DNA of 64,000 nucleotides from Escherichia coli (GCF_016903815.1 NZ_CP069973.1), one strand, 5' to 3'; counted from the stretch's first letter, positions 5,454-24,496 are shown. Numbers and translations: made by a program. Notes: generated by a model not told the origin, from the sequence alone.

Positions 5454-8400
5454 TTAGTCTCCAGGATTTCCGGGGCGGTTCAGCTGTTCATTAAAACGTT
5501 GTCCAGGCTGATCATAAAGTGCGCGTAATGTCTCCGCGGATGGCCGCGGTTGCATTTGCTGCATGCAGGGTTTCTGGTGGTAATCAAAATACTGTGGCAG
5601 ATGCTGGATCTCTGCTTTGTTTTCAATTACCCGTTGAAGGGCTCTTTGACGCAACTCTCTTGATGATTTGTCACGGATCGATTCCAATTGTAGCTGGCTG
5701 CCGCTACTAATTCGCTTACGAGCAGCATCAAAATCAAAGCGAATAGCCAATAGACTCGGCGTAGTCTCACTTAGCTGCAATTCCCCTAATTGCACTGATT
5801 CACGCTTATCTTTAATATAAACAATGATCTTATCATCAAGTTCAAAGCTGAGGTCAGCACCGGATTCCGTAGTATATGGGTAGAGTAAGCAACCACTCGG
5901 TGATTCCTGAAAGTCAGTAGAGTCGATGTTGACTATATCTCGTAGGTCTACTTCTGTATCAGATAATGCCTGCCATAACTCAATTGGGCTTGACTCACTA
6001 CTATCGAAGTCATCTTCATCCATCTCTTGATTAGGATTAGCTCGCTCAATGATGGCATCAATTACTGGCTCGAGGTTAAACAGTAGTTCAATAAAAGTAT
6101 TACGCTGATTAAGTGAGCCACGTTGTAATGAAAGTTGAGTATTAATTTTAGCCTGGGAATATTTACCAGCCTTTATACTTTCTTCGATCGATAATCCTTT
6201 TTCATACACTATTCTATTAATAGTGCGATTATCAGGATCTAAGTCTATCAATAGCCGCTCTCCTAGGCCAGTGATGTAACAACGCAATTCATGCGCAAAG
6301 CGTGGGTTAGATGACCAGTTACATTGAAAATAATAGATCCCATCATTTTGTTCTAGAAGCTTCACTTCTTGCGGCCAATCATCTGTGCCCCAGCAAACAG
6401 GAATTACCTTATCCTGTGACTCAGACGCCACAACTTGATTAATCTCAGCTTGTTCCGGTGCTCGAATTGACTGCAGCAAAGGATCGAGCGCGATAGGTAT
6501 ACCGTCAACGGTTTGTTTTGCGCGTTCTAGCTCAGCCTGCACCAGTACTGGCATATCTTCACTAAATAGCTCCTCCACCATACGATATACTGCAAAGCAA
6601 TCTCGCCCAAAAGCATCAGTACTTTCGGGATTCTCTGGCTGGTAGCGATTATCTGCAGTTAATTCATCACTGAATTCAAGCAATCCAATCAGAGTAATTA
6701 CTGTCTGCTCCCCGACTTGTACCAGCAGTTTCTCTGGGCAAAGATCTCCATGAGGTAACTGCTTTTCATGAAAAGCATGAATGGTGTTGATCAACTTTTC
6801 CGCAATTGTAAAACGTTGGGATTGTACTAACACGTTCTCAGCAATAAACTGTGACCACGGTAGGCCATCCACATACTCGCTCACTACATACAAGCCGCCT
6901 TGTCCTAATAGTCCATAGGACTGCACCTTAGGAGTTGGCAGATTTATATGCGTAAGCTTATCGATCCGTTGCTTAAAAGCGTGGATACGGCGGTTAACAC
7001 CAGGTTGTTGAGGGGTCAAAATAACACCATCCCACAATTTTACCTGCAGAGCTTTCCCACCTTGTTCACAGTGATAACTGATGCTGCCAGTCGTAGCAAT
7101 AGCAGCAAGAGCAGAGTAAACCATAGACAACTGTTCAGGAAGTGGAGGAAACTCAATTAACACACCAACGCTGTTCATCCCTTCGCGAAAGAATTTGTTT
7201 TGCTTTAATTCTTGATAAATCTGGTTAGCTTCATCAAATTCTTGGCTATGTTCCTTAGTAGCTGCATTAAACTCATTGAGCATTATGTCCGCACGTGGAA
7301 AGCGTTTACTTGGCTCAAGGTTAAGAGCTTGCTCAAACCAGCTATTTAGAATACCGCTAAAAGGATCAGTTAATGGAGCTCTCCATTCAGGCATCTGTCC
7401 AGGAGTCAGTAATGATTCACCTGCAAAACAAATACGATAAGCAATTACAGCCAACATGAATACATCTAGGCGATAGGGCTCAACTGCTTCTTCAAAAGCA
7501 TCTTCGGGCAAAATATATGGAGCACTTTGCAATGTCGGACGCAATGACTCTAGGCTATTATGTCCCTCCAGTGAGGCTGCGCCAAAGCCAGTAACGACAA
7601 TGCTCTTCTGATCCCCTGCGTACCATAGATTGTGCGGGTCAATATCACAATGACTGATACCCAAGCTATGTAATTCCGAGAATGGAGCTAATAATGCACG
7701 AACGCGATCAATACGCTCAGATTTACTCCATCCGTCAGCTTCGCTATCTAGAATCTCATCTAATCGGCTAAAACTACGGCGTAACTCATACAGCTCACGG
7801 GCATCATCAGTTATATCCTCCTCGGATAGTTCCCTTACAGCACGCAACATATAATCCTGCATAGTTGCGCTGCCATGACGAACTAGGCGACCGACTCGAG
7901 TCTCACGCAGAGCTATCTCAGCCCACAATGTTTGCATTGCGTTTGCTACACCCAAGGCATCAAAGTTCCACTGCCGTAGCAGACCTCTGTGTTGACTATT
8001 GTCTTTGTGGGTAGCCCTGAATTCGTTGTAGACCATGTGAGGGTGACTAAAGAATGGCTTATCGTTCGCAAGATAACCGCTTTCTTTTAGTGGCAAAGGC
8101 CTGACTTTTGGTCCTTCAAAGAAGGACTTAATTATAGGTAATGCCTCATCAGAATTTGGTCGAGGCTTTCCCCCTTCAAAAAGATGAAAAAAGTTAGTGT
8201 GTTGCACCAGCTTTTCGTAATTTTTTGGGTTACCTATAGTCAAGAATTCATCACGGGTATGAACATAGCGCCTCTCACTTAATGGCAAGTTTTCAGGACC
8301 AGCTGTGCCACACAGCACTACATGAGCCTCAACATGCAAAAAGTAACCCAGCTTACGAGATAACTCTTCCTGCAACAAATCTTTTAGTCGCAGTGCATGC

Positions 8401-8678
8401 TCACGCTTGATCTGATAGGGACTTTTGCCTCGTGACTTACCATTTTGCAGCCACTTCCCCCCTTCAAATGTGATGTTACCATTCCACTCTTTAAGCTCGA
8501 CTAATAGCAGACGGTCAGCAGTAATAATTAGCATATCGATTTCCATCGACCCTTGGCTATCAGTAACAACTAAGCCAGCATAGCCAAACCAACTATCTGG
8601 TAACTGCTTAACCATCATATCAACTGTTTTGGTTTCGCTGCGGTGCAGGCCAGCACCACCTACTATCTGATACTTCAC
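5454..8678 (-). CDS. Large uncharacterized protein: N-terminal NERD-like nuclease-related domain followed by two protein-kinase-like domains and a ~370-aa C-terminal region; native 3' end replaced by IS629 sequence
   Basis: 1074-aa ORF; NERD-like motif [22 protein letters not shown]; kinase catalytic-loop-like motifs [11 protein letters not shown]...GFG and [11 protein letters not shown]; last 9 codons (LNRPGNPGD) are encoded by the IS629 inverted repeat. Confidence 0.7.
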
Positions 8679-10594: not shown

Positions 10595-11472
10595 ATGAAT
10601 ATCCGTATCTGGAGTGGTATACTCCCCTGTATGGATATCTCCGCTCTCAACACCACGAATGACATCGAAAAACTGCGTGCTATGGCACTTACCATGGTAC
10701 AAAAAGTCATGTCGGAGAATGCCGAAAAAGAGCGGGAATTACTGGAGAAAAGCCGGCGCATCCAGCTTCTGGAAGAAATGCTGAAACTGGTTCGTCAACA
10801 GCGCTTCGGTAAAAAATGTGAAACGCTGGCTGGTATGCAACGCTCCCTGTTCGAAGAGGATGTTGATGTCGATATCGCCGCGCTTACCGCACATCTGGAT
10901 AAACTGCTCCCGCAATCCCCTGAAGAAGACGAAAAAGCGTCCCGTTCACGCCCGATACGCAAACCCTTACCGGCTCATCTTCCACGGGTGGAAAAAATTA
11001 TCCAGCCGGACACTGACCATTGCCCTGAATGTGACGAGCCGCTGCACTATATCCGTGATGCGGTGAGTGAAAAGCTGGAGTATATTCCCGTTCACTTCGT
11101 GGTGAACCGTTATGTCCGTCCGCAATACAGTTGTTCCTGTTGCCAGAAGGTGTTCAGCGGTGAAATGCCGGCACATATCCTCCCGAAAAGTGCCGTTGAG
11201 CCATCAGTCATCGCACAGGTGATCATCAATAAATACGGTGACCACCTGCCTCTGTATCGCCAGCAACAGGTCTTTGCCCGTTCAGTGTCGGGCTGCCCGT
11301 CAGTTCGATGGCTGACATGGTTGGCGCGGCGGGTGCCGCATTATCTCCCCTGGCGGCGTTACTCCATCGCGAGTTGATAAACCGTCCGGTGGTGCATGCA
11401 GATGAGACTACCCTGAAGATCCTGAACACTAAGAAAGGCGGTAAATCCTGCTCCGGTTATCTGTGGGCAACC
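10595..11472 (+). pseudogene. IS66-family transposase TnpC, frameshifted and truncated
   Basis: N-terminal leucine-zipper-like region and zinc-finger motif CPECDEPL...CSCC; continuation ADETTLKILNTKKGGKSCSGYLWA lies in another frame (11308 onward). Confidence 0.75.
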
Positions 11473-12274
11473 AGCCTTCCGCCTCGTCCGGATCCGCTGT
11501 TTCCAGTGTCATCAGGAGCCGGCTGCATGCTTCCCCTGCCGTTTTACCCAGCGTGGCCCGCTGCGAAAGACGGATGCGGTTTCCGGCACCCAGCCCACTG
11601 CGGTTATCGATATGGACCTTAACCGGATCGGGTTCGGTGATAAGTGCGCGGGTATCCGGTGCCAGCAGACTCACCAGAGCCCGGATGCCTTCAGCATTGC
11701 GGGTGGGTAATCGCATGGCACCCAGTAAGGCCAGGAAACGGGAAACCGGCGTTGCCACCTGTTCAGCGGTGCCGGGTATACCGAGTCCGACCAGTCCCAG
11801 CAGACACTGCGATGTGGCATCGCGCCCCCCCTCCTCGAAAGTGGCCGGATACGCATATTTTCGCCAGATCCGGTAGTACTGGGTGGTGATGCGGTGGCTG
11901 AAAATATCCAGAAATGAGGTGAGCGCCTCATGTCCTTCACGGCGCTGCGCAATATCATCCAGCCAGGACGTCGGCAGAGGTGAGTCCACCCCATACATTC
12001 CGAGAAATGTCGTGCGGATCGTTGGGGGTAATGTCGGACGGTCTTCGTCGATCTCCACCGCTTTCAGGGTGCTGACCGGGAATCCCATCCCGGGCCAGGG
12101 CCTGAATCGCACCGGGTCATCGCCCGGATGGCTGGTCGTGCCCAGTTTTGGCCCGTCCGGATTTTCCAGCTCCAGCAGCTGGCAGAAACGATAAAAACTG
12201 GCCCGCCAGATATCGTTGTTAAGGGCCAGGGCCTGCGTCAGCCCGGTACGTGCTGGCTGTGATTCTCTTTTCAT
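11429..12274 (-). CDS. tssG: Type VI secretion baseplate protein TssG, C-terminally truncated at the IS66 junction
   Basis: 281-aa ORF with TssG-like segments (FYRFCQLLELENPDGPKLGT, PVRFRPWPGMGFP, FLDIFSHRITTQYYRIWRKY); 3' end overlaps IS66-derived sequence. Confidence 0.7.
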   Translation of the reverse strand: MKRESQPARTGLTQALALNNDIWRASFYRFCQLLELENPDGPKLGTTSHPGDDPVRFRPWPGMGFPVSTLKAVEIDEDRPTLPPTIRTTFLGMYGVDSPLPTSWLDDIAQRREGHEALTSFLDIFSHRITTQYYRIWRKYAYPATFEEGGRDATSQCLLGLVGLGIPGTAEQVATPVSRFLALLGAMRLPTRNAEGIRALVSLLAPDTRALITEPDPVKVHIDNRSGLGAGNRIRLSQRATLGKTAGEACSRLLMTLETADPDEAEGWLPTDNRSRIYRLS

Positions 12275-13929
12275 CTCAGTCGTTTCCCTGTGGGTTGCAG
12301 TACCAGTGTGAGCTGGTTGAAAAGGTGAACATCAGCATAGAGCGCAAAGAAACGGTGCAGCATCTCCCCGAAGAGATTCACATCGCCCTCGCCGGCAAAA
12401 TTATCCATATTCAGCGTGACCTCAATGTCCACGCCACGGAGCATAAAGCCCTTTTCAAAACGGCGGATCAGGGTGTGCTTCACAGCAACGATGGCTTCAA
12501 GCCGGCGGCGGTTCATTTCATCGTCGGTCCAGTCATAGAGCGCCAGCGTCCCCCGCAGCACCTCCGGATTGTCCATCATGCTGAGAAAGTTTGATCCGAG
12601 GTGACTCATCACCCGCCAGTGAAACCGGTCATTTGCCGGGGGATACAGTGGCATCGTCGGTGCGGTCAGGTTCAGGACTCTGACGGGGACTTTGCCGGTT
12701 TTGACCACCCTGTCCAGGAGCGTACTTTCCAGCGCCCTGCGCGGAAGCTGCCCGTTGGTCGCGGTGATTCGCATCGAGAGGGACTCCGGTTTATCGGACA
12801 ACTGCTCCAGCTCGAACGAACGCCCCCCGAGAACTAACCATGTGTCATACAGGCCGGAGGGTCCCCGTTTCACACGGGTGTGGTAATAACGTTCAGGAGC
12901 ATCGTGGCGCATCATACCGCCCCGGTGCCGGAAGCTGGTGAACGGGACATAAGGGTGTCTGCCGTTCTTCACCGAGCCGTGAATGTTATCGACGCTGTAA
13001 ATTTCGGTGTGACCATCCTGAAGACGCAGCGGCCTGAGCAGGTACTCGTTATCCAGCGGGTTAAGGATCAGCGGGTCGGCTTCCAGGGTAAAGAGATTGA
13101 TAACCGGCGCACAGTGCAGGCGGAAGTTTTCTGTCTCAAAAGGCAAACCGGATGACCAGGCTTCACTGAGCACAATGTCGATTTCAAACCAGGTACTGGC
13201 CGCAGTGAGCCCAATGGTGTCGAGGCCGCGCAGTTCAACAAACATAAACTTCGGACGGAAGCTGAAATACTCCAGCAGCAACTGGTAACCACTGAAGGCT
13301 GTATCAGCTTTCTTCCACAGGCAGTCATTGTCGTCAAAGCCCATGGGTCTGCACCAGCCGTCAAACTGACGACGTCCGGTATATGTCCCGGCATGACGCG
13401 CATACATGGCATGTACACGCCGGGTCATTGCCAGATGTAGCGCAGCACTTACCGGCGCCTCTGCGTTAAGAAAAATGGCGACTTTGTCGATCCCGGCTTT
13501 ACTCCAGTCCACTTTTTCAGGGCATTCGAAGCGCAGACGGATAGCAGAGCGGCCATCGGATTCAGTATGGAGACGGGCATCTGCAAGGTGCAGCGGTTGT
13601 AGCAACACATCGCGGGTCGCCCGGTACTGGCAGGCGGTTTTATGCGGCCCGACAGGACGGGACAGAACGGAAAAGCCTTCAGCCAGTATTTCGGCCTGAC
13701 GCAGACTACGCCAGTCAGGCGAGAACTCAACGATGGCCAGCGACGGGATAGTCCGCATATAGTGCGGCCACAGCAGACTCACCAGACCTTCGGTGAGCTC
13801 CGGCAGGTCATCATCCAGCTTTTCACGCAAACGTCCCATCAGGAAGGCAAAGCCTTCAAACAGACGTTCCACACTGGGATCGCAGGCACCAGGCTTATCC
13901 AGATTCAGCATTGCTGACGTAATCCACAT
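12271..13929 (-). CDS. tssF: Type VI secretion baseplate protein TssF (N-terminal region possibly disrupted)
   Basis: 552-aa ORF with TssF-like N-terminal motif DPSVERLFEGFAFLMGRLREKL; a further TssF-like piece lies in another frame at 13895-14116. Confidence 0.7.
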   Translation of the reverse strand: MWITSAMLNLDKPGACDPSVERLFEGFAFLMGRLREKLDDDLPELTEGLVSLLWPHYMRTIPSLAIVEFSPDWRSLRQAEILAEGFSVLSRPVGPHKTACQYRATRDVLLQPLHLADARLHTESDGRSAIRLRFECPEKVDWSKAGIDKVAIFLNAEAPVSAALHLAMTRRVHAMYARHAGTYTGRRQFDGWCRPMGFDDNDCLWKKADTAFSGYQLLLEYFSFRPKFMFVELRGLDTIGLTAASTWFEIDIVLSEAWSSGLPFETENFRLHCAPVINLFTLEADPLILNPLDNEYLLRPLRLQDGHTEIYSVDNIHGSVKNGRHPYVPFTSFRHRGGMMRHDAPERYYHTRVKRGPSGLYDTWLVLGGRSFELEQLSDKPESLSMRITATNGQLPRRALESTLLDRVVKTGKVPVRVLNLTAPTMPLYPPANDRFHWRVMSHLGSNFLSMMDNPEVLRGTLALYDWTDDEMNRRRLEAIVAVKHTLIRRFEKGFMLRGVDIEVTLNMDNFAGEGDVNLFGEMLHRFFALYADVHLFNQLTLVLQPTGKRLR

Positions 13930-14936
13930 TCAACAGTGCAATACGCAACCGTTCTTCCGGCCCTGCCTCTGTCTGCCGGCACTCATCCAGGACATCCTGC
14001 CATTGCCGGCGAAGACGGGGCGATTCATTCAGTTCTGTAAAACAGTATTTATCCGCCAGATAATCAATTCGTGTACGCATACTGAAAAGAATTCCGTATA
14101 AAGATTCAGCAGACAAAACTTTATCAGTCTGTAAAAATTAACGGAAGAGTCGATATTTCTCCCGGTCATCACCGGATGATTGTTGCAATAACCAGTGGCA
14201 TCAGAGACTGAACAGCCGTTTTTAACGCAACGTATTGCTCTGATGTATCAGGCCGGGTAACCCGAAAACACCTTTCCACCCGACATTGTCCGCCCGTATC
14301 CATCCCCCGCCAGGTCTGCTGCAGTAAATCCACCACTTGCGAACATTGTTCATCAACTGTGACACTGGCTCGCGGGTGACAAATACTCGTCTGGCTGAGC
14401 AGCAACAGGCATCGCATTGTTGCTCCTCCATGTTGTTCCCGCAACCAGCGTAATACCACCGGCGATGATGGACTGGTCGTGTGATTACGCTCAGTAATAC
14501 GTTCATAAAAGGAAGTACAGAATGCATGAATCTGTTGCCCGTTGATGTTTCCTTCTGCCGAATGGAGCGTGAAGTGAAATGCCAGCAGACGCGGCCAGTG
14601 GTCCACCCCCTGCTGAACAAAACGCCGGATTTCCCCCGGCGCTGAAAGTAAGGCTTCGGTTATTTGCACTATTTTACCCCTGTGAATTTTGTTAAGCCGG
14701 TGCAGACACACGGAAAACGCACATCAACACCAGCACAGTACGATACAAACACCAGTGACTGACGGGACGAAAGGAATAACGAATCAGTCAGGAAAGAGCT
14801 ACAACCTGCTGGCTGACCGGAGAGGGTCAGCAGGAAAATGAACGGTAATGTCGCCAGCACCAGGGACAGAGCTGATTTCCGCAATACCAGCGCCGGCATT
14901 TTGCACATTGCCAGCGTACCGGCATCACAACTCGTT

Positions 14937-15170
14937 TCATGCTGCTCCTCGTGATTCCTCAATTCGCTGCTGCATCCACTGCTCTACTTCACTTTTGTAC
15001 CAGCGGCTGCTGCGCCCCAGTTTGATGGGTTTAGGGAAATGGCCTTCACTGATCAGCTTGTAAAACCATTTGTCGGTCATACCAGTGAAGCTGGTGATGT
15101 AGTTCATGTCGATCAGGGGATCGTCGGCACGCAGCAATACGCTGTCGTGACCTGTCATTGAGGTCAACAT
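14937..15170 (-). CDS. alpA: AlpA-family phage regulatory protein (DNA-binding)
   Basis: 77-aa ORF, ...FTGMTDKWFYKLISEGHFPKPIKLGRSSRWYKSEVEQWM matches the AlpA helix-turn-helix pattern. Confidence 0.75.
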   Translation of the reverse strand: MLTSMTGHDSVLLRADDPLIDMNYITSFTGMTDKWFYKLISEGHFPKPIKLGRSSRWYKSEVEQWMQQRIEESRGAA

Positions 15171-15238
15171 GGTCAGAATGTCCTCTGTGAGATTTATGAA
15201 TGTTGGGCAAATGCGGGTGAATCTGCTGAGCTGAGCTT

Positions 15239-15841
15239 TCAGAGCTGGCCTGCTACGGGATACCAGGGATTACCGGCGAGGTAACGGGCTTCCGGATCGC
15301 GCACACCACGACGATCGCGGGCGAAATCACTGAACGCCCATATCAGCTCTTTGAGTCTCTCTTCGCAGTCCGGTGAACAACTGTCCAGCACCACATCCCG
15401 GGTGATCTGCTTCTGGTACGGTGCTGCTTCACCCGGTGATGCGAAGCCCAGTACGTTGCTCCAGGCATCCAGAATCAGCCGATCCAGTTCAGGGCCGTCG
15501 AAATACTCCTGTCTGACGCACAGCACCACGTGGTATTCCGGTTTTTCAGGATGACGTGTCAGGAGCCAGCAGAGGTCACGTCCGGGTGTTGCATTCATCA
15601 GCGCACTGACGGTTTCGATAAAGGCCATACCGAACCAGGTTTTTCTGTCGCTGAAGATGTTGCCATGTTCCCCCGGCAGACGAAGCAGGATCCGCCGTAT
15701 TCGGGAGCAGGACTGCTCGCGCAACACACGGTTGAGAACGCCGATGATTTTGTTCTGATAAGATGGCCAGAAGGGGGCCAGGCTATAGTCGAAATAAGGG
15801 ATAGCATTCATAAGATATGCTCCGTTATGCGCAGCCCACAA
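15239..15841 (-). CDS. YagK/YfjJ-family (inovirus Gp2-like) protein
   Basis: 200-aa ORF; family assignment from recollection of E. coli cryptic-prophage YagK/YfjJ proteins. Confidence 0.55.
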   Translation of the reverse strand: MWAAHNGAYLMNAIPYFDYSLAPFWPSYQNKIIGVLNRVLREQSCSRIRRILLRLPGEHGNIFSDRKTWFGMAFIETVSALMNATPGRDLCWLLTRHPEKPEYHVVLCVRQEYFDGPELDRLILDAWSNVLGFASPGEAAPYQKQITRDVVLDSCSPDCEERLKELIWAFSDFARDRRGVRDPEARYLAGNPWYPVAGQL

Positions 15842-16068
15842 TGCGTCCTGCCCGTGAATAAGCTGACGTGTTATGGTTTGCGGATGGGGTTGATGGAATA
15901 AGTGAAGAACCGGGGCAGAACGGGAAGATCAGGTCACCGACAAGGGACAGAACACCGGATGTGGTTCAGAGTGAATGATCTCCGTTGACTTCAGTTCACA
16001 TCATTAAGCAAGGCGGTAAGGTTTTACCGACGGAATGTTTCCAGGACAGGAAGCTCAGGATTTAAGCT

Positions 16069-16635
16069 TCAGAAGTGAGGCTTACGAGGACGCCCTGCAG
16101 CAGGTCGTTCAGGAACTTCACTGCAACCGTATGCGCACAGTCCGTCTTTTTGCTCTTCTTTCGCCAGATAATGCAGGACACCGCGAATATTATCGATGCT
16201 CCCGGGATCGTTATGACGCACGGGAATGTTGATGTTGTATGTATAATGCGGCTGATATGTACAGCGGTGTGCCGAACCGCTGTTATGCGTAATAGACTGC
16301 CAGCATTCCGTAATCCGCTCCGCAAAGGGATATATTTTTTTAACCCTCTGACGATCGAGCCAGAAAACCGCATGCGCATGAAAACCATGATCAGCCGTCC
16401 ATTCAATCACCCAGAAGAAACCAACGATATTTTCAAATTGTTCCACCTGCTCCAGCAGCATACGCAACTGCAATTCAAGCCAGCGATGATCAGGTTGTAA
16501 GAAATCAGGCGTATCTTTCCTGTAGAAGAAATCCATGCGTAAGGCCCGCAGGCGGGAATAGCGTGCGACCAACTGATTGATGTGATTGTCAAGTAAAGCG
16601 GTAAAAAACCAGTTTGGTGTGTAAGATTTAGGCAT
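16069..16635 (-). CDS. YagK/YfjJ-family (inovirus Gp2-like) protein, paralog
   Basis: 188-aa ORF sharing motifs with the 15239-15841 and 19308-20039 ORFs (e.g. HAHAVFWLDRQ vs HYHVILLLNKD). Confidence 0.55.
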   Translation of the reverse strand: MPKSYTPNWFFTALLDNHINQLVARYSRLRALRMDFFYRKDTPDFLQPDHRWLELQLRMLLEQVEQFENIVGFFWVIEWTADHGFHAHAVFWLDRQRVKKIYPFAERITECWQSITHNSGSAHRCTYQPHYTYNINIPVRHNDPGSIDNIRGVLHYLAKEEQKDGLCAYGCSEVPERPAAGRPRKPHF

Positions 16636-18128
16636 GCTGATGACTCCTGAAAGTTAATGACGTTTTAAGTGCTGTAAACGAATTAATGCTTTCGCTCATA
16701 ATCAGATCTAAAACGGTAATAACTTACAGACGGTATTTATCAGGCATGCTGTAACAGAATGGATACGTCGGTTATTAACGACACACAGCGTTGTGCTGAA
16801 GGGTATGAGTTATCTGATGGCATTGTCTATAGAGATGAGATAAACGAGGTGCGAAGAAAATACAGATTCAATACAACACAGTGAAATACAGAAAAATACG
16901 AACTGTAATCCCGCTGCCAGGCGGTTAGGAAACATATTACAACTATAAGCTCATGGTTTGTAAATTTGCTCTCAGTGAGTCTGAAAAAACGTTTATAAGG
17001 TCACCACAATAAACTCACACGCGCTTATTCAATCTGTTCTCCAGGATATGAACGTTAACGACACACGATAGCATAAGACAACATACAATGGATGAATAAT
17101 TTTCACCCAGTACCTTAAACAATACAACCGGCAACAAATATAATCAGAAATTCACTCTGTTAATTCTGTTGTTTATCCTGCGCTGTTAAACATGACGGAA
17201 CCATGGATACCTTATCAAAGAGTAAGCATTCAGTTAATCAGTAATGACAGAGAAATTGATGTTCACCAGAATAGTTAAAACACTTCAGATAAACAATCAT
17301 TGTTAAGCAAATACGGTTCATAATGGATAAATTAGAATCAATTACTGTTTTACTGAAGATGAGAATAGATGAATATCAACAATAGCGTAGTAGAGAATAA
17401 CTTACCTGAACATCATATGAGTTACAGTAGTTATGATTGAGGGATGGAGTGAATACGATAACAAGAGTAATACTAATGGAATGTGTAAAGATTGAGAGTG
17501 AGTGAAGACAGGAAGTAAATAACAATAGAGATTGTATGAAAAAGGGAGTGAATAAAGAATATATAAAGAATAAATATAATTATAGTAATAAACCTAAATT
17601 AAAATCATCCTTGTTTGATGAGTAAAAATAATTCTAGAAAATGAATCTGTCTGAAAACTCTTTCTCAGAGATTAACCGATCAGATGCTCAACGGACTCAA
17701 TAAATTGGCTGAGTCAGGTTACCTCATCCACACTCTATTTGTTTCTAGAAGGATCTACCATTTTGTTCATCTACCGGAACACATCAATTTAGTAACTCGA
17801 TAATATCGGTTATGTAGATATTTATCGTTGCTACCAATGCCTAGATTATTATTCTCCAAGTATTTTCTTGACTTACAGGCTAATTTTGAAACAAATGTCA
17901 TGCTATTTTAGGAAAAGAACCTATGCAAAAGTCTGCTATGAGCGAGGAGCAGATATTCATCTGGTATACAAAGACAATATCGCTTAAGTCATCAGTGCTG
18001 CCACTTTAACCACTAGCTCTGCTCTTTTTGGACTTTTGAGCTAAAAATTAAATCTGACAGTGTGATAAGGTGCAAGTTTCTGAAAATACGCCAGTTGTTT
18101 TACACTCAAAAGCCCCCATTACTATCTG

Positions 18129-18884
18129 ATGTTAATGGCGCAGCAGTTATCTTTCAGATTATTAAGGGGAAACAAGAGTATGGCAAGATGTACAGCTCCT
18201 GTACGTGGACATAGCTCAGCAGCAGCTGCTGCTGCCTGTCCCGCATGTCGTAATCGCAGTGGTTATCGCCGCAGTAGCTACAGTTATGATAGTTACCCTT
18301 CTTACTCATCAGGCTCTAGCGGTGGCGGAAGTTATGGAGGCAGTAGCGGTGGTTCCAGCAGCAGCGCGAAGCCACGTTGGTCAAAATCAGGGTCTTCCGT
18401 TTCTTACACAACAGCCCAAGTACAATCACTCACACCAATTCGACAAGCGGTAGAGAAACTTGCCATTGAGCAACCTGATCTGCGTGATGTCTTTCTTTGC
18501 CATGCTTGGGATGACCGACAAGGTATTGCCAAAGAGTTACACGATTTGCTCGAAGCGGCAGGTGTCAAAGTATGGTTCAGCGAAAAGGATCTTGCCCTTG
18601 GTGTTCCGATGATGCGTGCCATTGATAAAGGATTAGCAAACTCTCGAATCGGCTTGGTTTTAGTGACACCTGCATTGTTAAACCGTCTTCCTAAAGAAGG
18701 CGTTGCTGATAAAGAACTTTCCGCCTTACTGGCAGGCAACCAACTCGTTCCCATCGTGCATAACACGACGTATGAAGCTCTCCGTAATGTCAGTCCTTTG
18801 CTTGCATCCCGAAGCGGCCTCGACACGGGAGAAGATACATTGGCAGTTGTTGCAACAAAAATTGCAGAGCTGATCACTGTTTAG
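18129..18884 (+). CDS. TIR-domain protein with Ser/Gly/Tyr-rich low-complexity N-terminal region
   Basis: C-terminal ~140 aa DVFLCHAWDDRQGIAKELHDLLEAAGVKVWFSEKDLALGVPMMRAIDKGLANSRIGLVLVTPALL fits the TIR pattern; start codon uncertain (18129, 18135 or 18180). Confidence 0.75.
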   Translation: MLMAQQLSFRLLRGNKSMARCTAPVRGHSSAAAAAACPACRNRSGYRRSSYSYDSYPSYSSGSSGGGSYGGSSGGSSSSAKPRWSKSGSSVSYTTAQVQSLTPIRQAVEKLAIEQPDLRDVFLCHAWDDRQGIAKELHDLLEAAGVKVWFSEKDLALGVPMMRAIDKGLANSRIGLVLVTPALLNRLPKEGVADKELSALLAGNQLVPIVHNTTYEALRNVSPLLASRSGLDTGEDTLAVVATKIAELITV

Positions 18885-19307
18885 TTTATCCAAGCCACCG
18901 TTAAATATTTCCAGCTCATGAATCTGGTCTGCTATTGCAGGCCAGATATCAGTCAATACTGAAAGGTTTGACCTGCTCCCCGTTGATTAACATAGACTGA
19001 TATAGCAACTTCCGCTTTTGGCACAAAGCAGACCATGAGAAGATAGACGCTATAACATTTGAGTCCTACCAATCGATCTGTTCATTTCCATAAATGGCAG
19101 TAAATGCAAATAACCAGAACAGCCAGGCGCTTTTCGACTTATGGTCGATGTTGCAAAGAGTGAGGAGTGGAAAGCAAGCGTGCGAACGAAAGTAGATGGC
19201 AATCCATTGCATTACTTCAGGACGACTTTTCAGAAAGCGAGCTAAGGGCGTCAGCCAACGCCCTTACCGTGGCATAAGCTCAGGCACCGGATGCCGTTTT
19301 ACAGGGC

Positions 19308-20039
19308 TCACCTGCCATCCAGTAAACGCCCCGGCCCACGACTGCAACCATAATTACGTTGACCAGAACCGTCATGCTGCTTCGTCTCATACTTCACGAG
19401 ATAACAGGCTCTCTCCATGGCTTTCTGCATCGCTTCCACATCACCACGCTTGACCCAGAGCACAGCGGATCCACCAGATTTTTTGTCAGAAGCTTTCCGG
19501 GTATCAGAACATCCACCCGACAAAGGCGTATCATCGGAAGAAGGGCGAGCATCAGATGATGCCGGTTTACGGAAAGGCGTCCGCCTGGAAAAATGAACCA
19601 GTCCATTACCCTGCCAGGGTTCAAGATGCAGAGCGCTACACCATGCCAGCTTGATCAGCGTCGCCAGCGAAGAAGGAACGGTGAAATCCCCTAGCGAGCA
19701 CCAGGTATCTTTGTTGAGCAGTAATATCACGTGATAATGTTTCCTGCCTTTTTCCTTGCCAAACTCCCGACACCAGAAATAACGCAGAGTGGTTGCACGC
19801 ACACGCTTGTTGGCACGTCGTTTATGTCGCTGGTAAGCCTGAATTTTTGCTTTCAGGGATTCGAAAAAACGAGAAATCACCGCTGAATCCGAATCGGGAT
19901 CCATGATGGTGACAGGCATATACTCAGGGAAACGTAAATCCATCCGGATTAACGAGACGACACGGTGTTGCGCCAGGGCACTGTTGAGAATACTTTCAAA
20001 ACGGGATAACCAGTAAGCATTGTGTATTGGTTGATTCAT
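19308..20039 (-). CDS. YagK/YfjJ-family (inovirus Gp2-like) protein, paralog
   Basis: 243-aa ORF MNQPIHNAYWLSRFESILNSALAQHRVVSLIRMDLRFPEY... parallel to the two other paralogs. Confidence 0.6.
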   Translation of the reverse strand: MNQPIHNAYWLSRFESILNSALAQHRVVSLIRMDLRFPEYMPVTIMDPDSDSAVISRFFESLKAKIQAYQRHKRRANKRVRATTLRYFWCREFGKEKGRKHYHVILLLNKDTWCSLGDFTVPSSLATLIKLAWCSALHLEPWQGNGLVHFSRRTPFRKPASSDARPSSDDTPLSGGCSDTRKASDKKSGGSAVLWVKRGDVEAMQKAMERACYLVKYETKQHDGSGQRNYGCSRGPGRLLDGR

Positions 20040-21682
20040 GATGAGAGATCTCCGTTGATTTGGATTGACTTCACATCATTAATCACCGCGGTAAAACTTT
20101 ACGGCATCCCGCCATTGAGCAACGCCAATGGCTCCTGATTAAAACAGAATGAATCCCCCACGAAGAAAAAATAAACCTACACGCAGAGTAAAACACACAA
20201 CAACGGCATAAATGGTTTTTAAAAACTACAAAGCCTGAAGGGAAACGGATCCACAGAACGTGCAAACAAAACACCAAAAACGCAATCAGAACGCTTTCTG
20301 CTGCTGTGAATCAACAACAATACCAAAACCTACAGCTTAACCACAAAACTCAATCACAGAGCCGAATAGCGTGTTTAAAACCTGTTTACAGATAACCCTG
20401 CCACAAGAACAAAGTTCACCAATATCAGAATCGATTTTCTCATCCTGAAAATGTTACGTTTCACTACACAGCATAAAAACGATTAACTATTGATAACGTA
20501 AACCTCATCTGAATCAAAACACCAGAACCAATCATCACGCTTTTCCTGAAAAGAGCCTTGCGCTGAGAAAAAACACCAGGGTCAGTTAATCATCTCATCA
20601 ATCTCATCGTTACAAAAACATCCATAAAACCATTTAACAAAATCATCGTAAGCACACAGTAAATCACGCCAGGTTATCTCAGCCAAATTTTCGTTTTACA
20701 TAAAGACACTTGTCTCAGGTTAACGACTAAAAACACAAAAACTCAGAAAAGGTTAAACGTAACTTCAGAAAAATAGAATATCATATTGATTGCTTAAACA
20801 GGAAAGATTGTTTTGTAGTAGCATTAAGCTGATTTTAGTTAACGTAAAAACAGGACTGACAGGTTTACTAAACTGGATGTGTATCAGACAAAGCAATGTG
20901 TATAACAATACTTAATGAAAACACTTGTAGAATTGTTTATGAAAATACGTGTATGTCTGGTAAAACACTTAGTAGAAAATACGTGTATAACACTTACTGA
21001 AATGCTTAGTAAAAATACTTAGTAAAATATGTGTAGAATTATCTATTTAAAAAGATATGTATATAACACTTAATAAAAACATGTGTATATAGTATCATAC
21101 CGACATTCTCAACATCTTCAGACTTCCATACATACTGGGTGTTGATTTCTCACTTTTACAGCCAGCATGGAGTTTTCTGTCCTAAAAACAGAGCAGATTT
21201 ACTCTGGAATTATTTTTCTACCCCCGTATTTCAGGCCCCAGAAAAGACAATCCGAAGCAAACCGTTTGTCAGCCTCCATATCATCTTTTACCCCCGGAAA
21301 GTGATCGCGTTTACAACCAGAATGACAGCCATACTGATTATGTCGTCTCCCGGCCCCCTTCACATATAACATGCATGTCTGTCATTGCTTACTGCTCCAC
21401 ATGACCGGATTTCACATACAGGATGCACATTCAGTGTTTTTATCGCTACTATAACAGACAGATTACTGTCGTCTTTACTCTTCAGATTGTTAATCTGACC
21501 ACAAGAACAGCCGAACGGCAAAACGCCCTCCACAAGGGGCACATGAACCATAGTTGATAGCATGTTTTTCCTAATCAAGGAATAGTTCAGGAATATTTTA
21601 TTGCATTAATAACTGGCGAATAATCGTTCTGTGAACACAAAATGCTTTTATTTGTAAATTTTATTGCATTGCACTCGTTTTA

Positions 21683-22522
21683 TTGATATGGGGTTTAATA
21701 ACAGATAACCCGGAAAGAAGGAGAAAACAGATGACATTACGGATTAACGATCAGGGGCGAGATAAACAGAATCAATTTTTATCGAAAAATGGAGAAAATC
21801 TGAATTCGTTAAAATCGCGTCATGTGCAGGATAGGCATTTACCTGAATGGCTTAAGGATAAAGTTGCAGCATTCTGGTTTTGTCTGGTGATAAAGGATAT
21901 GAAAGTGTCAGGGAGCAGTTACTATGAACTTACCATGCAACTTCCCACTTCTGAAGAATCTGTTTGCATCAGTAAGCTGTCATCCTCAACCCATGAGATT
22001 CGGCTGGAGATCATCAGGCGATGGATTGATAGTGTAGCGCAGATAGAAACGGAAGCTTTTACTAAAAATCTCGTTGATGCCATCTATAAAAACTGGAAGG
22101 AAATCGGGAACAAAAACCAGGCCACATGGCTTAAAAAAAATCCGGAACAACTCGAGTGGGCATGGAAATATATTAACATTCGTATTCCCGAGTCACATTT
22201 AACCTGGTTTTGCCCCGTCAATAACGAAGAGAAACGCATTGCCATCTTAGCATTGCTTAAAATACTGTATCCCGGAGATATACCATGCCAGTACAACGAC
22301 AAAGAGTTTCATGTCGGGATCTGCGCTGAAGAACATTTTTACAGAAGAATGCACGACGCTTTCAGAAAACAGTTTATCGACGGGAAAAAAGATAAACGGG
22401 TACAAATTAACGTAAAGATATCACCGTCCGCAAAAAGCGCTCTGGACAGACTGACCAGAGCGAGGAAAACAACACAGCAGGCTATTCTGGAACAACTGAT
22501 TCTGAACGGTAGACTGGATTAA
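21683..22522 (+). CDS. Hypothetical protein (no recognisable domain; possible ribbon-helix-helix-like C-terminus)
   Basis: 279-aa ORF; likely true start at MTLRINDQ (21731); function unknown. Confidence 0.5.
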   Translation: MIWGLITDNPERRRKQMTLRINDQGRDKQNQFLSKNGENLNSLKSRHVQDRHLPEWLKDKVAAFWFCLVIKDMKVSGSSYYELTMQLPTSEESVCISKLSSSTHEIRLEIIRRWIDSVAQIETEAFTKNLVDAIYKNWKEIGNKNQATWLKKNPEQLEWAWKYINIRIPESHLTWFCPVNNEEKRIAILALLKILYPGDIPCQYNDKEFHVGICAEEHFYRRMHDAFRKQFIDGKKDKRVQINVKISPSAKSALDRLTRARKTTQQAILEQLILNGRLD

Positions 22523-23520
22523 CTTTCACTACTTCCACTCCTGGCAGTTTTCCTCTTTTTGTAGTGTCTCCCGGCTGCAGGCATCAGGTACTTTTCCGTC
22601 ATTTCGTTGCAGAACTCTTCAATGTAGTTAATCAGCTTCTGGTGTGCTTTCACCTTTTCTTCCCCGGGGGACGCTTTCAGATAAATGTCCTCCTTTTCCA
22701 CAAGTGTATTTATAAACTCTCCCGGACATCCCTGGTTATAAAGCAACGTGAAAAACAACACATTCCCCAGTCTCTCCAGTAACTGCGATTTAACCCTGTA
22801 TTGTTGTTTGCTGAGGATTGATTGTTTTATAAAGCTTAGTCTTGTTAAAAGTTGTTCAAATCCCGGTTCCAGTTTAAAAACAGATTTTAATACCAGGGAC
22901 TGATACTCCTGATAAAAAAGTTCAAACGTCGGGGATGCAGACTGACGAACAGATTTGGCTACAACCCATGGACTAAATCCCATGATTGGGATTTCCTTCG
23001 CTCCCTCCAGCGCACTCAGAGGTAGTCCAGCAATCCATGCGTCCAGCTTAGCCGAATCAATATCCCCGCTCAAAACCTCATACAAACTGCCCGTGAACGG
23101 TTGAGTCGGTTTTTTTGTTGTTTTACCTTCTGATTGCCTGAATCCATCCACTTTTCTCCGGATATTACGCGGAATCAGCATAAAAGGCGGGACATTAAGT
23201 GATAAACGTTTACCCGTCATACGATACCAGTGGCCCACCTCAACCTTAATCCGTGTATCTGGCCTTGTATCTGGCCTTGTATCTGGCCTTAGCTCAAGTG
23301 CTATTATGTTAAGCAGGTACAGATAACGCACCGTATAACAGTCAAAATGTTTCTCCGGATCAAACGGCTCTGATCGTTCTCTGCACACAAGTCCGCTGCG
23401 CTTCAGTATTCGCTGGGTATCTTTCCAGGCCTTACTCTGAAGAATGGTGGTAACTCTGGCTTTATTAGCAATCTCACGCAGCGCATCACTTTGTTGTGCC
23501 GTCATCTCTTCCCTCCACAC
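22519..23520 (-). CDS. Hypothetical protein containing in-frame tandem repeat (RPDT)x3, divergent from GTPase gene
   Basis: 333-aa ORF; 12-bp tandem repeat at ~23255-23292; function unknown. Confidence 0.55.
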   Translation of the reverse strand: MWREEMTAQQSDALREIANKARVTTILQSKAWKDTQRILKRSGLVCRERSEPFDPEKHFDCYTVRYLYLLNIIALELRPDTRPDTRPDTRIKVEVGHWYRMTGKRLSLNVPPFMLIPRNIRRKVDGFRQSEGKTTKKPTQPFTGSLYEVLSGDIDSAKLDAWIAGLPLSALEGAKEIPIMGFSPWVVAKSVRQSASPTFELFYQEYQSLVLKSVFKLEPGFEQLLTRLSFIKQSILSKQQYRVKSQLLERLGNVLFFTLLYNQGCPGEFINTLVEKEDIYLKASPGEEKVKAHQKLINYIEEFCNEMTEKYLMPAAGRHYKKRKTARSGSSES

Positions 23521-23611
23521 TTTGTCACTCCAGATTTTTTCACGTCCATATTACCTGAATGATAAACCGGATTAGTGTGATCCGGTTCAGCGAAATCAAC
23601 AGGATACCGGT

Positions 23612-24496
23612 ATGTCATTCAGCCATTCTTCCCTCTCTGCACAAGTGAAATCATATCTGACGTTTCTTCCTGAAGAAATTCGCCAGAAAATCCTTGAACA
23701 TCTCCACGGTGTTATTCATTACGAGCCCGTGATTGGCATTATGGGTAAATCCGGCACAGGCAAAAGCAGCCTGTGTAATGCCATTTTTCAGTCCCGTATC
23801 TGCGCCACGCATCCCCTGAACGGCTGCACCCGCCAGGCTCATCGTCTTACCCTGCAGCTCGGTGAACGCAGAATGACGCTGGTCGATCTGCCCGGCATTG
23901 GTGAAACACCGCAGCATGATCAGGAATACCGGACACTTTATCGTCAGCTGCTACCGGAACTGGATCTGATTATCTGGATCCTACGGGCTGATGAACGTGC
24001 GTATGCTGCCGATATTGCCATGCATCAGTTTTTACTGAATGAAGGTGCAGATCCCTCGCGTTTTCTGTTTGTTCTCAGCCATGCCGATCGCGTGTTTCCT
24101 GCTGAAGAATGGAACGACACAGAAAAATGCCCGTCCCGTCAGCAGGCGCTCTCACTGGCGACGGTGACAGCCCGGGTGGCAACCCTGTTCCCTTCATCAT
24201 TTCCGGTACTCTCCGTTGCTGCACCTGTCGGCTGGAACCTTCCGGCGTTTGTGTCGCTGATGATCCACGCACTGCCACCACAGGCAACCAGCGCGGTGTA
24301 TTCACATATCCGGGGAGAAAACCGCTCTGAACAGGCCCAGAAACACGCACAACAGACTTTTGGTGACGCCATCGGGAAAAGCTTTGACGCTGCCGTTGTC
24401 CGGTTCAGTTTTCCGGCCTGGATGTTACAGCTTCTCCGTAAAGCCCGGGACCGCATTATCCACCTGCTGGTCACACTGTGGGATCGTCTGTTCTGA
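23612..24496 (+). CDS. YeeP/YkfA-family GTPase (cryptic-prophage type)
   Basis: 294-aa ORF with P-loop GIMGKSGTGKSS and G-domain motif DLPG. Confidence 0.8.
   Translation: MSFSHSSLSAQVKSYLTFLPEEIRQKILEHLHGVIHYEPVIGIMGKSGTGKSSLCNAIFQSRICATHPLNGCTRQAHRLTLQLGERRMTLVDLPGIGETPQHDQEYRTLYRQLLPELDLIIWILRADERAYAADIAMHQFLLNEGADPSRFLFVLSHADRVFPAEEWNDTEKCPSRQQALSLATVTARVATLFPSSFPVLSVAAPVGWNLPAFVSLMIHALPPQATSAVYSHIRGENRSEQAQKHAQQTFGDAIGKSFDAAVVRFSFPAWMLQLLRKARDRIIHLLVTLWDRLF

Follow-up and report, generated by a model that had tools for sequence, protein, structure and literature searches.

The locus and its genes

A 64,000-nt stretch of Escherichia coli DNA, referred to here as the window and used for all coordinates, carries three minus-strand open reading frames (ORF1, ORF2 and ORF3) related to the YagK/YfjJ proteins, together with a gene for a TIR-domain protein. 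The original prediction gave the three products as 200, 188 and 243 amino acids (aa) and placed one copy on each side of the TIR gene. The ORFs are present as described, with ORF2 1.5 kb to the left of the TIR gene and ORF3 0.42 kb to its right; the 200-aa length of ORF1 corresponds to a TTG start at 15841, whereas the Prokaryotic Genome Annotation Pipeline (PGAP) uses an ATG at 15811, which yields 190 aa. A count of three is one too few, as a gene of the UCP030791 family, on the other side of alpA, was overlooked. The stretch is probably the backbone of a CP4-57-type island, in which four anciently diverged genes of the YagK/YfjJ superfamily, two of them intact and two degenerate, surround alpA, and in which a variable slot is occupied by the TIR gene. 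The island architecture is a known one, of which this is a new example.

Gene names and layout (Table 1) follow the PGAP annotation of strains that are identical to the window over positions 14000-21000. Several human E. coli isolates match this 7-kb segment at 100% identity, and it is present to 80% or more of its length in 93 of 5,426 complete E. coli genomes.

Table 1. Genes and other features at the locus, in window coordinates
Feature	Position	Strand	Basis or remark
Truncated tssG/tssF, type VI secretion system baseplate pseudogenes	11429-13929	-	PGAP; IS66 debris further left
UCP030791 family putative phage-derived protein, 166 aa	14169-14669	-	PGAP name; predicted fourth, degenerate Gp2/YagK-like paralog
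79-aa hypothetical protein	14669-14908	-	PGAP
AlpA-family regulator, excisionase-like helix-turn-helix gene (alpA)	14937-15170	-	PF05930, E 1.9e-10
ORF1, PGAP 'hypothetical protein', 190 aa	15239-15811	-	Predicted remote, degenerate YagK/YfjJ paralog
Leader repeat copy A	15962-16027		Repeat search, blastn
ORF2, PGAP 'YagK/YfjJ domain-containing protein', 188 aa	16069-16635	-	PF11726
Backbone DNA 5' of ORF2, AT-rich, ORF-less	16636-17435		Common to islands with different cargo
TIR-specific cargo segment	17436-19009		Left edge fuzzy (17436-17720)
TIR cassette: coding sequence 18180-18884 (234 aa) plus 125 bp upstream	18055-18884	+	PF13676, PADLOC
ORF3, PGAP 'inovirus Gp2 family protein', K-12 YfjJ type, 243 aa	19308-20039	-	PF11726
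Leader repeat copy B, immediately 5' of the ORF3 start codon	20032-20102		Repeat search, blastn
ORF3 leader/promoter region, highly conserved	20040-20309		UTI89 comparison
ORF-less DNA, 1.6 kb	20040-21682		ORF scan, PGAP
Two hypothetical genes	21683-23520	+/-	PGAP
YfjP/YeeP-type GTPase, start of the downstream conserved island module	23612-24496	+	PF01926, E 7.5e-15

Relationships among the four genes

The assignment of all three ORFs to the YagK/YfjJ family holds to different degrees. In a Pfam scan, ORF3 is a clear member, matching PF11726 (YagK_YfjJ_C, gathering cut-off 25.8 bits) with 123.5 bits (E 1.1e-35) and PF23343 (REP_ORF2-G2P) with an E of 6.9e-9. ORF2 is marginally over the PF11726 cut-off (27.9 bits, E 2.6e-6) and also matches PHROG 7120 (E 8e-10). 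ORF1, which is annotated as hypothetical in every record examined, gave no match in Pfam (E<=0.01), NCBIfam, PHROG or PADLOC scans, and a relaxed scan against PF11726 returned 11.7 bits (E 0.26). As both ORF1 and the UCP030791 protein fall under the curated cut-off, they are remote relatives and not members at that threshold. The ORF1 family is nearly confined to E. coli in a word-indexed homology search, and an exhaustive HMMER search produced only two distant full-length relatives, P0077 (36% identity) and P0081 (32%). P0077 matches PF11726 with an E of 1.4e-10 and so forms a bridge to the family; P0081 has a direct, precomputed match to the same profile.

The conserved segments that the three ORFs were said to share are visible at the level of motifs and profiles. 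Pairwise BLASTP comparisons gave nothing significant (E 0.003, 0.12 and 0.32). When families were compared using hhalign, the ORF1 family aligned to the ORF3 family over 114 columns (probability 97.5%, E 8.4e-12) and the ORF2 family aligned to it over its full length (174 columns, 94%, E 1.2e-7), while the comparison of the ORF1 and ORF2 families was not significant (76 columns, 1.5%, E 0.033). Failure of the ORFs to align had been named as grounds for rejecting their kinship: sequence against sequence they mostly do fail, and it is the profile alignments of ORF1 and ORF2 to the ORF3 family that join them. Since each of these two families aligns to that of ORF3, the three proteins are predicted to form one superfamily centred on the ORF3/YfjJ type.

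The UCP030791 protein had no match to PF11726 in the Pfam scan, and as a single sequence it aligned insignificantly by hhalign (E 0.05-0.72). A family alignment (A7) was built from the window protein and distant homologues encoded by neighbouring genes in four other loci (L011, L013, L003 and L005). This alignment matched the ORF3 family (probability 96.7%, E 3.6e-10) and the merged superfamily alignment (97.2%, E 4.5e-11). Independent evidence comes from a Serratia member of the UCP030791 family (180 aa), which has precomputed matches to both PF27752 (UCP030791) and PF11726. The window gene, annotated as hypothetical or putative phage-derived in the records examined, is thus predicted to encode a fourth, remote and degenerate member of the YagK/YfjJ/Gp2 superfamily. 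The profile matches and the Serratia double match together bring the superfamily members to four in 6 kb, each in the same orientation as alpA. This density is far above chance, yet it is the normal state of this island family.

Predicted catalytic motifs and fold

Motifs were read from the merged superfamily alignment (A6) and from the separate family alignments. The superfamily alignment displays the layout that is classical for HUH replication-initiation (Rep) proteins: motif I, the HUH motif, an 'AW' helix and YxxK. Motif I reads R-x-D-L-R-F-P in ORF3, R-M-D-F in ORF2 and R-I-L-L-R-L-P in ORF1; the UCP030791 protein has F-H-F-T-L-H at that position and its Serratia homologue R-V-L-L-R-L-P. 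The HUH motif (motif II) is H-Y-H-V-I-L-L-L-N in ORF3 and H-A-H-A-V-F-W-L-D in ORF2, and its position is taken by E-Y-H in ORF1 (C-Y-H or F-Y-H in relatives) and by M-R-C in UCP030791 (C-G-M, L-H-G or L-P-M in relatives). The 'AW' helix is present in ORF3, ORF2 (as C-W) and ORF1, and appears as T-W in UCP030791 (A-W in relatives). Motif III is Y-L-V-K in ORF3, Y-L-A-K in ORF2 and S-D-F-A-R in ORF1, where the tyrosine is changed to aspartate, and it is absent from UCP030791.

HUH and YxxK are both intact in ORF2 and ORF3 and are conserved among their orthologues across genera. ORF1 and the UCP030791 protein have lost both the first metal-binding histidine and the tyrosine and, because of this loss, they are probably non-catalytic, DNA-binding or regulatory partners. 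In their three-motif layout (RxDL, HUH and YxxK), ORF2 and ORF3 resemble inovirus gpII and other HUH Reps, such as parvovirus NS1/Rep, SIRV1 ORF119 and RepB. Unlike these, the window proteins are small (188-243 aa for ORF1 to ORF3) and single-domain, two of the four are without catalytic residues, and the activity of the others is predicted.

AlphaFold models of ORF3 (predicted local distance difference test (pLDDT) 76.5, predicted template modelling score (pTM) 0.76) and ORF1 (pLDDT 78.2, pTM 0.78) are both of moderate confidence. Foldseek searches lend weak support to an HUH-like fold. The ORF3 model is similar to Rep proteins, to TnpA-REP and to the HUH domain found in the Helraiser transposase; the top matches to the ORF1 model are NS1 of minute virus of mice (probability 0.99) and adeno-associated virus Rep (template modelling score 0.45), followed by TnpA-REP and IS200. 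An HUH nuclease fold is therefore the predicted one for these models. Residues ~153-190 of ORF3 form an E. coli-specific, Ser/Asp/Pro-rich insert of ~40 residues, which is modelled at low confidence, predicted to be disordered and missing from orthologues in other genera. Several E. coli ORF3 alleles (214 aa) are frameshifted inside this insert.

Descent and selection

In a neighbour-joining tree of 26 sequences, ORF1, ORF2 and ORF3 each cluster with their own orthologues from other genera, forming three clades with 100/100 bootstrap each. Protein identity is 11-19% between the clades versus 47-59% within them. ORF2-type proteins occur in Citrobacter, Enterobacter, Salmonella, Serratia and Xenorhabdus and ORF3-type proteins in Providencia and Jinshanibacter; YfjJ of K-12 is also of the ORF3 type (31% identity, E 6e-28). 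Using blastn, no nucleotide homology among the three genes was found save for a leader repeat of 56-70 nt, which is described below. These comparisons identify the copies as ancient paralogs and not the outcome of recent serial duplication. The serial recombination that had been suggested as their origin is contradicted by the same low identities, the fully supported clades with other genera and the lack of nucleotide homology, and by the synteny of distant elements, where multiple copies per island are a recurring, conserved state. Thus, in two metagenomic elements AlpA occurs together with an ORF1-type gene (P0077 in one, P0081 in the other) and a UCP030791-type gene; the catalytic Gp2 gene is of the ORF2 type (58% identical) in the element with P0077 and of the ORF3 type (37%) in that with P0081. 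In Serratia, AlpA is accompanied by an ORF2-type gene, small zinc-ribbon genes and a UCP030791-type gene, and the annotation of the Shigella SRL pathogenicity island lists homologues of AlpA and YfjP/YeeP along with three ORFs of the 'inovirus Gp2 family' (PMC6980539). Single-copy islands also occur, in K-12 (CP4-57), Providencia, Xenorhabdus and Jinshanibacter.

Ratios of nonsynonymous to synonymous substitution rates (dN/dS) were calculated pairwise against the islands of UTI89, E89, CFT073 and others. They were 0.03-0.09 for alpA, 0.175 for ORF2, 0.19-0.27 for ORF1, 0.31-0.43 for ORF3, 0.42-0.48 for UCP030791 and 0.16-0.22 for the GTPase. With every value below 1, the four paralogs are under purifying selection in these comparisons.

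The island copy itself appears immobilised, as no tRNA or tmRNA was found in the 64-kb window and the sole recombinase annotation within ~14 kb to the left is a 156-nt fragment (~8.9 kb; taken from the annotation of strain 222, whose sequence may not match the window in this part). An intact tyrosine integrase beside a tRNA/tmRNA attachment site was not found for the window island, and the left end of the island abuts IS66/IS3 insertion sequences (IS) and truncated tssF/tssG. This decay, along with the frameshifted variants of ORF1, ORF2 and ORF3 in other strains and the missing catalytic motifs of ORF1 and UCP030791, would fit a reading in which the copies are relics of a defunct element, have no present function and are clustered by historical accident. 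Such an outcome is very unlikely, however. Frames are intact and dN/dS is 0.175-0.48 for the four genes across islands that differ by 9-14% in DNA; each of the subfamilies, even those that are degenerate, is retained in other genera (25-60% identity) in the same syntenic setting; and the leader of ORF3 is 95-99% conserved.

The leader repeat and the non-coding DNA

Short repeats flanking the genes had been proposed as something to look for, and one was found. It is a direct repeat of 56-70 nt whose two copies are 75-77% identical (blastn, 75% over 56 nt, E 2.5e-6). The repeat corresponds to an ORF3-type 5' leader with a Shine-Dalgarno sequence and a small palindrome (CGGTAAaaccTTACCG). Copy A sits between the ORF2 stop and the ORF1 start and terminates in CTG where ORF3 has ATG, which suggests that it is a relic of another ORF3-type gene start or a common regulatory site. 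Between the window and UTI89, the 270-nt leader of ORF3 is 95-99% identical, with the ORF3 coding sequence mostly equal or lower (89-99% per 100 nt). The DNA 5' of ORF2 is 86-94% identical over the first ~180 bp and 71-90% beyond.

The DNA 5' of ORF2 and the ORF3 leader belong to long, AT-rich and ORF-less stretches, 16636-18128 (1.5 kb) and 20040-21682 (1.6 kb), which have a GC fraction of about 0.33-0.38 and lie upstream of ORF2 and ORF3, respectively. Good conservation is restricted to their proximal 180-270 bp. The ORF scan detected none of at least 50 aa in the 1.5 kb upstream of the TIR gene and none of at least 50-76 aa across both stretches. Silencing by H-NS or the presence of an origin are possibilities for this DNA. 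It contains weak AT-rich tandem arrays of 11-13 nt at 17551-17576 and 20962-21027, and a loose family of 27-28 nt repeats at 20918-21078. A promoter and terminator scan found fewer promoter-like sites than in shuffled sequences and was uninformative for terminators. An Rfam scan of 14000-24000 returned PhotoRC-I at 24 bits versus a threshold of 45; this lies inside the ORF3 coding sequence and was judged to be a chance match.

The cargo slot and the TIR gene

That the TIR gene is cargo between conserved flanks, as had been proposed, is borne out by their frequencies. Among the 5,426 E. coli genomes, the alpA-ORF1-ORF2 block is present at a coverage of at least 80% in 1,536, the ~800-1,080 bp upstream of ORF2 (unannotated) is matched in ~1,676, and ORF3 with its upstream DNA has any match in 1,886 and at least 80% coverage in 518. 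The DNA bearing the TIR gene is present in 91-93. Homology to TIR-less islands ends at ~17436-17720 and returns at 19010, so that the edges of the TIR-specific DNA fall in non-coding DNA, outside the paralogs and outside the leader repeat. The arrangement is ordinary, as the flanks are the fixed backbone of a very common island, and the variable slot between the ORF2 and ORF3 blocks accepts many interchangeable cargo genes, among them the TIR gene.

The contents of this slot differ from strain to strain. UTI89 has the same genes in the same order and a slot of 25 kb, comprising dsdCXA, a choline-trimethylamine lyase (cut) microcompartment, IS elements and a restriction endonuclease. GN05652 has a restriction endonuclease directly to the left of ORF3, and strain 1435 has SMODS plus SLATT and IS100 there (for these two, the ORF3 side was examined). 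In CFT073, an IS3 element and pgt genes follow a frameshifted ORF2; in K-12, AbpAB and RnlAB follow yfjJ. Xenorhabdus has a Gp2-like gene followed by DUF6361 and a helicase. In Jinshanibacter (locus L021, 5923-11030), genes for a different TIR protein (322 aa) and a Cap4 nuclease come directly after AlpA and a Gp2 gene of the ORF3 type, which is an independent case of TIR cargo beside a Gp2-like gene. Finally, E89 (locus L005, 8152-9839) has the order alpA-ORF1-ORF3, with ORF3 directly after ORF1; window positions 16055-19200 (ORF2, its upstream DNA and the TIR gene) are missing. At the deletion junction, 16054|19201, ~20 nt of unrelated sequence is present, and neither a duplicated target site nor an obvious repeat or shared sequence was found there.

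The TIR protein matches PF13676 (E 3.7e-15) and, from end to end, the PADLOC ThsB1 model PDLC00424 (E 3.6e-128). Its N-terminal 100 residues are of low complexity, Ser/Gly/Tyr-rich and Cys-containing. Thoeris combines ThsA with ThsB; the window protein resembles ThsB1 over its full length and differs in having no adjacent ThsA. In identical strains, the annotation has no ThsA-type gene (SIR2/SLOG or Macro) over ~14-20 kb on the left and ~20 kb on the right of the TIR gene, nor was ThsA found within 6 kb of two Klebsiella plasmid copies examined. The TIR gene as found here is consequently not a Thoeris system. A decayed thsA in the ORF-less 1.5 kb upstream was considered and found no support, as the left ~800 bp is backbone common to TIR-less islands. 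The same TIR (95% aa and 85% nt identity) is present on ~140 Klebsiella and other enterobacterial plasmids. Here, nucleotide homology is confined to the 830-bp cassette, and the plasmid copies examined lie beside IS elements and a GNAT/DUF1778 pair. The TIR behaves as a self-contained cassette that moves independently of Gp2-like genes.

Short matches (22-27 nt, E ~1e-4) to DNA beside IS3-family elements on plasmids were seen at 18923-18949 and 18969-18990; they hint at IS scars and are too short to be relied upon.

Could the paralogs, or short repeats beside them, have recombined, shuffled modules and brought the TIR gene to its place? The leader repeat does flank ORF2, the TIR gene and ORF3, E89 lacks exactly ORF2 and the cargo, and cargo differs between identical flanks. 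This route is nevertheless unlikely. The coding regions have no DNA homology through which to recombine, their products being 11-19% identical between subfamilies, and the repeat is short and diverged. In addition, the E89 junction lies off the repeat with no clear duplicated sequence, the borders of the TIR-specific DNA coincide with neither the repeat nor the paralogs, and elsewhere the cassette is found beside IS elements. Nothing points to the paralogs as the vehicle of the TIR gene, which on Klebsiella plasmids occurs as the cassette alone.

A further reading assigns the slot to the enzymes themselves: ORF2 and/or ORF3 would be active HUH nucleases that capture or move adjacent DNA in an IS91/ISCR/Helitron-like manner, and the slot would exist through their activity. 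Both proteins retain the catalytic motifs, as do their orthologues across genera, the ORF3 model is similar to the Helraiser HUH domain and TnpA-REP as well as Rep proteins, and the highly conserved ORF3 leader contains a small palindrome; moreover, in several genera defence cargo adjoins the 3' end of a Gp2-like gene. We consider this quite unlikely, since the borders of the cargo revealed neither terminal hairpins nor ends of the ori/ter kind, a helicase domain is absent both from the proteins and from their neighbours, and the genes occupy the same backbone position in every locus examined instead of being scattered like IS elements. The geometry is also inconsistent, with cargo on the 5' side of ORF2 but on the 3' side of ORF3.

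Comparison with known islands

The CP4-57-type gene set, comprising AlpA, a YfjJ-type gene, a YfjP/YeeP GTPase and DUF932/antirestriction/RadC/CbeA-CbtA, is complete in the window and in that order. Beyond the GTPase are DUF932, antirestriction, RadC, DUF987 and CbeA/CbtA genes, then kps capsule genes. In K-12, CP4-57 has the order intA-yfjH-alpA-yfjI-yfjJ-[abpAB, yfjM, rnlAB]-yfjP-yfjQ...lfgA-lfgB-ypjJ-yfjZ-ypjF. It, and islands of the CP4-6/CP4-44 type, share with the window AlpA, a YfjJ-type gene and variable anti-phage cargo in the same backbone order, and after the cargo CP4-57 likewise has the YfjP/YeeP GTPase, DUF932, antirestriction, RadC and CbeA/CbtA. They differ in that CP4-57 has one annotated Gp2-type gene (yfjJ) versus four superfamily genes, and AbpAB/RnlAB as cargo versus a solo TIR gene. 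The window island also lacks a YfjI (DUF3987) gene and, as stated above, a tRNA within the window and more than a recombinase fragment. Pathogenicity islands of ExPEC strains (UTI89 and CFT073) and of Shigella (SRL) have this backbone too. That of UTI89 has alpA, ORF1-type, ORF2-type, cargo, ORF3-type and GTPase genes in identical order at 86-91% DNA identity; the slots differ, holding 25 kb of metabolic genes and a restriction enzyme in UTI89 and IS3 plus pgt in CFT073, versus 1.5 kb with the TIR gene in the window.

An integrated inovirus prophage was considered and rejected, as no inovirus structural or assembly genes accompany the Gp2-type genes: PGAP annotation and a PHROG scan revealed no morphogenesis, coat or ssDNA-binding genes nearby, the neighbours being AlpA, TIR, hypothetical and GTPase genes. 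Further afield, for the jumbo-phage-transduced intY/alpA islands I23, I44 and I55 of Pseudomonas, the likely core has been described as AlpA, RadC and a protein similar to inovirus Gp2, and the variable cargo as mostly defence genes (PMC12595487). Compared by their published description, they differ from the window island in genus and integration system and are listed with one Gp2-like gene each (PMC12595487).

A working model

Excision triggered by AlpA is established for CP4-57, and the gpII protein of Ff phages nicks DNA and primes rolling-circle replication. A working model for the present island draws on these two precedents, on the motifs and fold and on the linkage to AlpA. In it, AlpA would trigger excision of the island, as in CP4-57, and the intact HUH proteins ORF2 and ORF3 would nick the excised circle and prime its rolling-circle replication in the manner of Ff gpII, possibly feeding packaging by a helper phage. 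ORF1 and the UCP030791 protein would act as non-catalytic partners of these nickase/initiators, and the TIR protein would work independently as an NADase-type anti-phage protein. More tentatively, and with a good deal of doubt, the four genes could be a conserved AlpA-associated replication/mobilisation module of a large class of enterobacterial islands, with the inactive paralogs as origin-binding or regulatory partners; such a module may create or maintain the hotspot for cargo and defence genes.

Several observations weigh against the interpretation of the stretch as a CP4-57-type backbone with four related genes of this kind. No functional study of the YagK/YfjJ family was found in the literature searched, where YfjJ and YagK are mentioned in gene lists, tables and one y-ome paper only, so that motifs and fold are the sole basis of the proposed nicking/replication role. 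ORF1 was modelled from an alignment that also contained the ORF2 and ORF3 families, and the fold obtained is therefore no independent support. Neither an origin, iterons nor a nick-site hairpin was identified, the repeat, promoter and Rfam scans being uninformative. The dN/dS values come from few pairwise comparisons. Finally, a frameshift interrupts ORF2 in CFT073, and variants of ORF1 and ORF3 with frameshifts occur in other strains, which indicates that the paralogs are dispensable in some strains.

The finding amounts to the normal backbone of a widespread E. coli island family whose known variable slot holds a rare cargo gene, and it reveals no new mechanism. What it adds is that two families known as hypothetical, the ORF1 type and UCP030791/PF27752, appear to be degenerate relatives within the HUH Rep-like YagK/YfjJ group. 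In several genera they accompany catalytically intact copies beside AlpA, which provides a testable hypothesis on island replication or mobilisation. In addition, the gap beside the YfjJ-type gene is a recurrent site of anti-phage cargo (TIR, restriction enzyme, SMODS/SLATT, AbpAB/RnlAB and Cap4 nuclease) in which new defence genes could be sought. The solo ThsB-like TIR, which is spreading on Klebsiella plasmids without ThsA and for which no functional study was found in the literature searched, is one candidate.

The left edge of the island

The tssG/tssF pseudogenes are joined to the left end of the island beside IS66 remnants, indicating a rearranged, mosaic edge. Further left, between IS fragments at 5454-8678 on the minus strand, a 1,074-aa ORF has a NERD (nuclease-related) domain at its N terminus together with protein-kinase-like domains and is a candidate defence gene. 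At the same place, strain 222 has a 1,652-aa AAA-domain protein and a 515-aa partner, so this region varies between otherwise identical islands.

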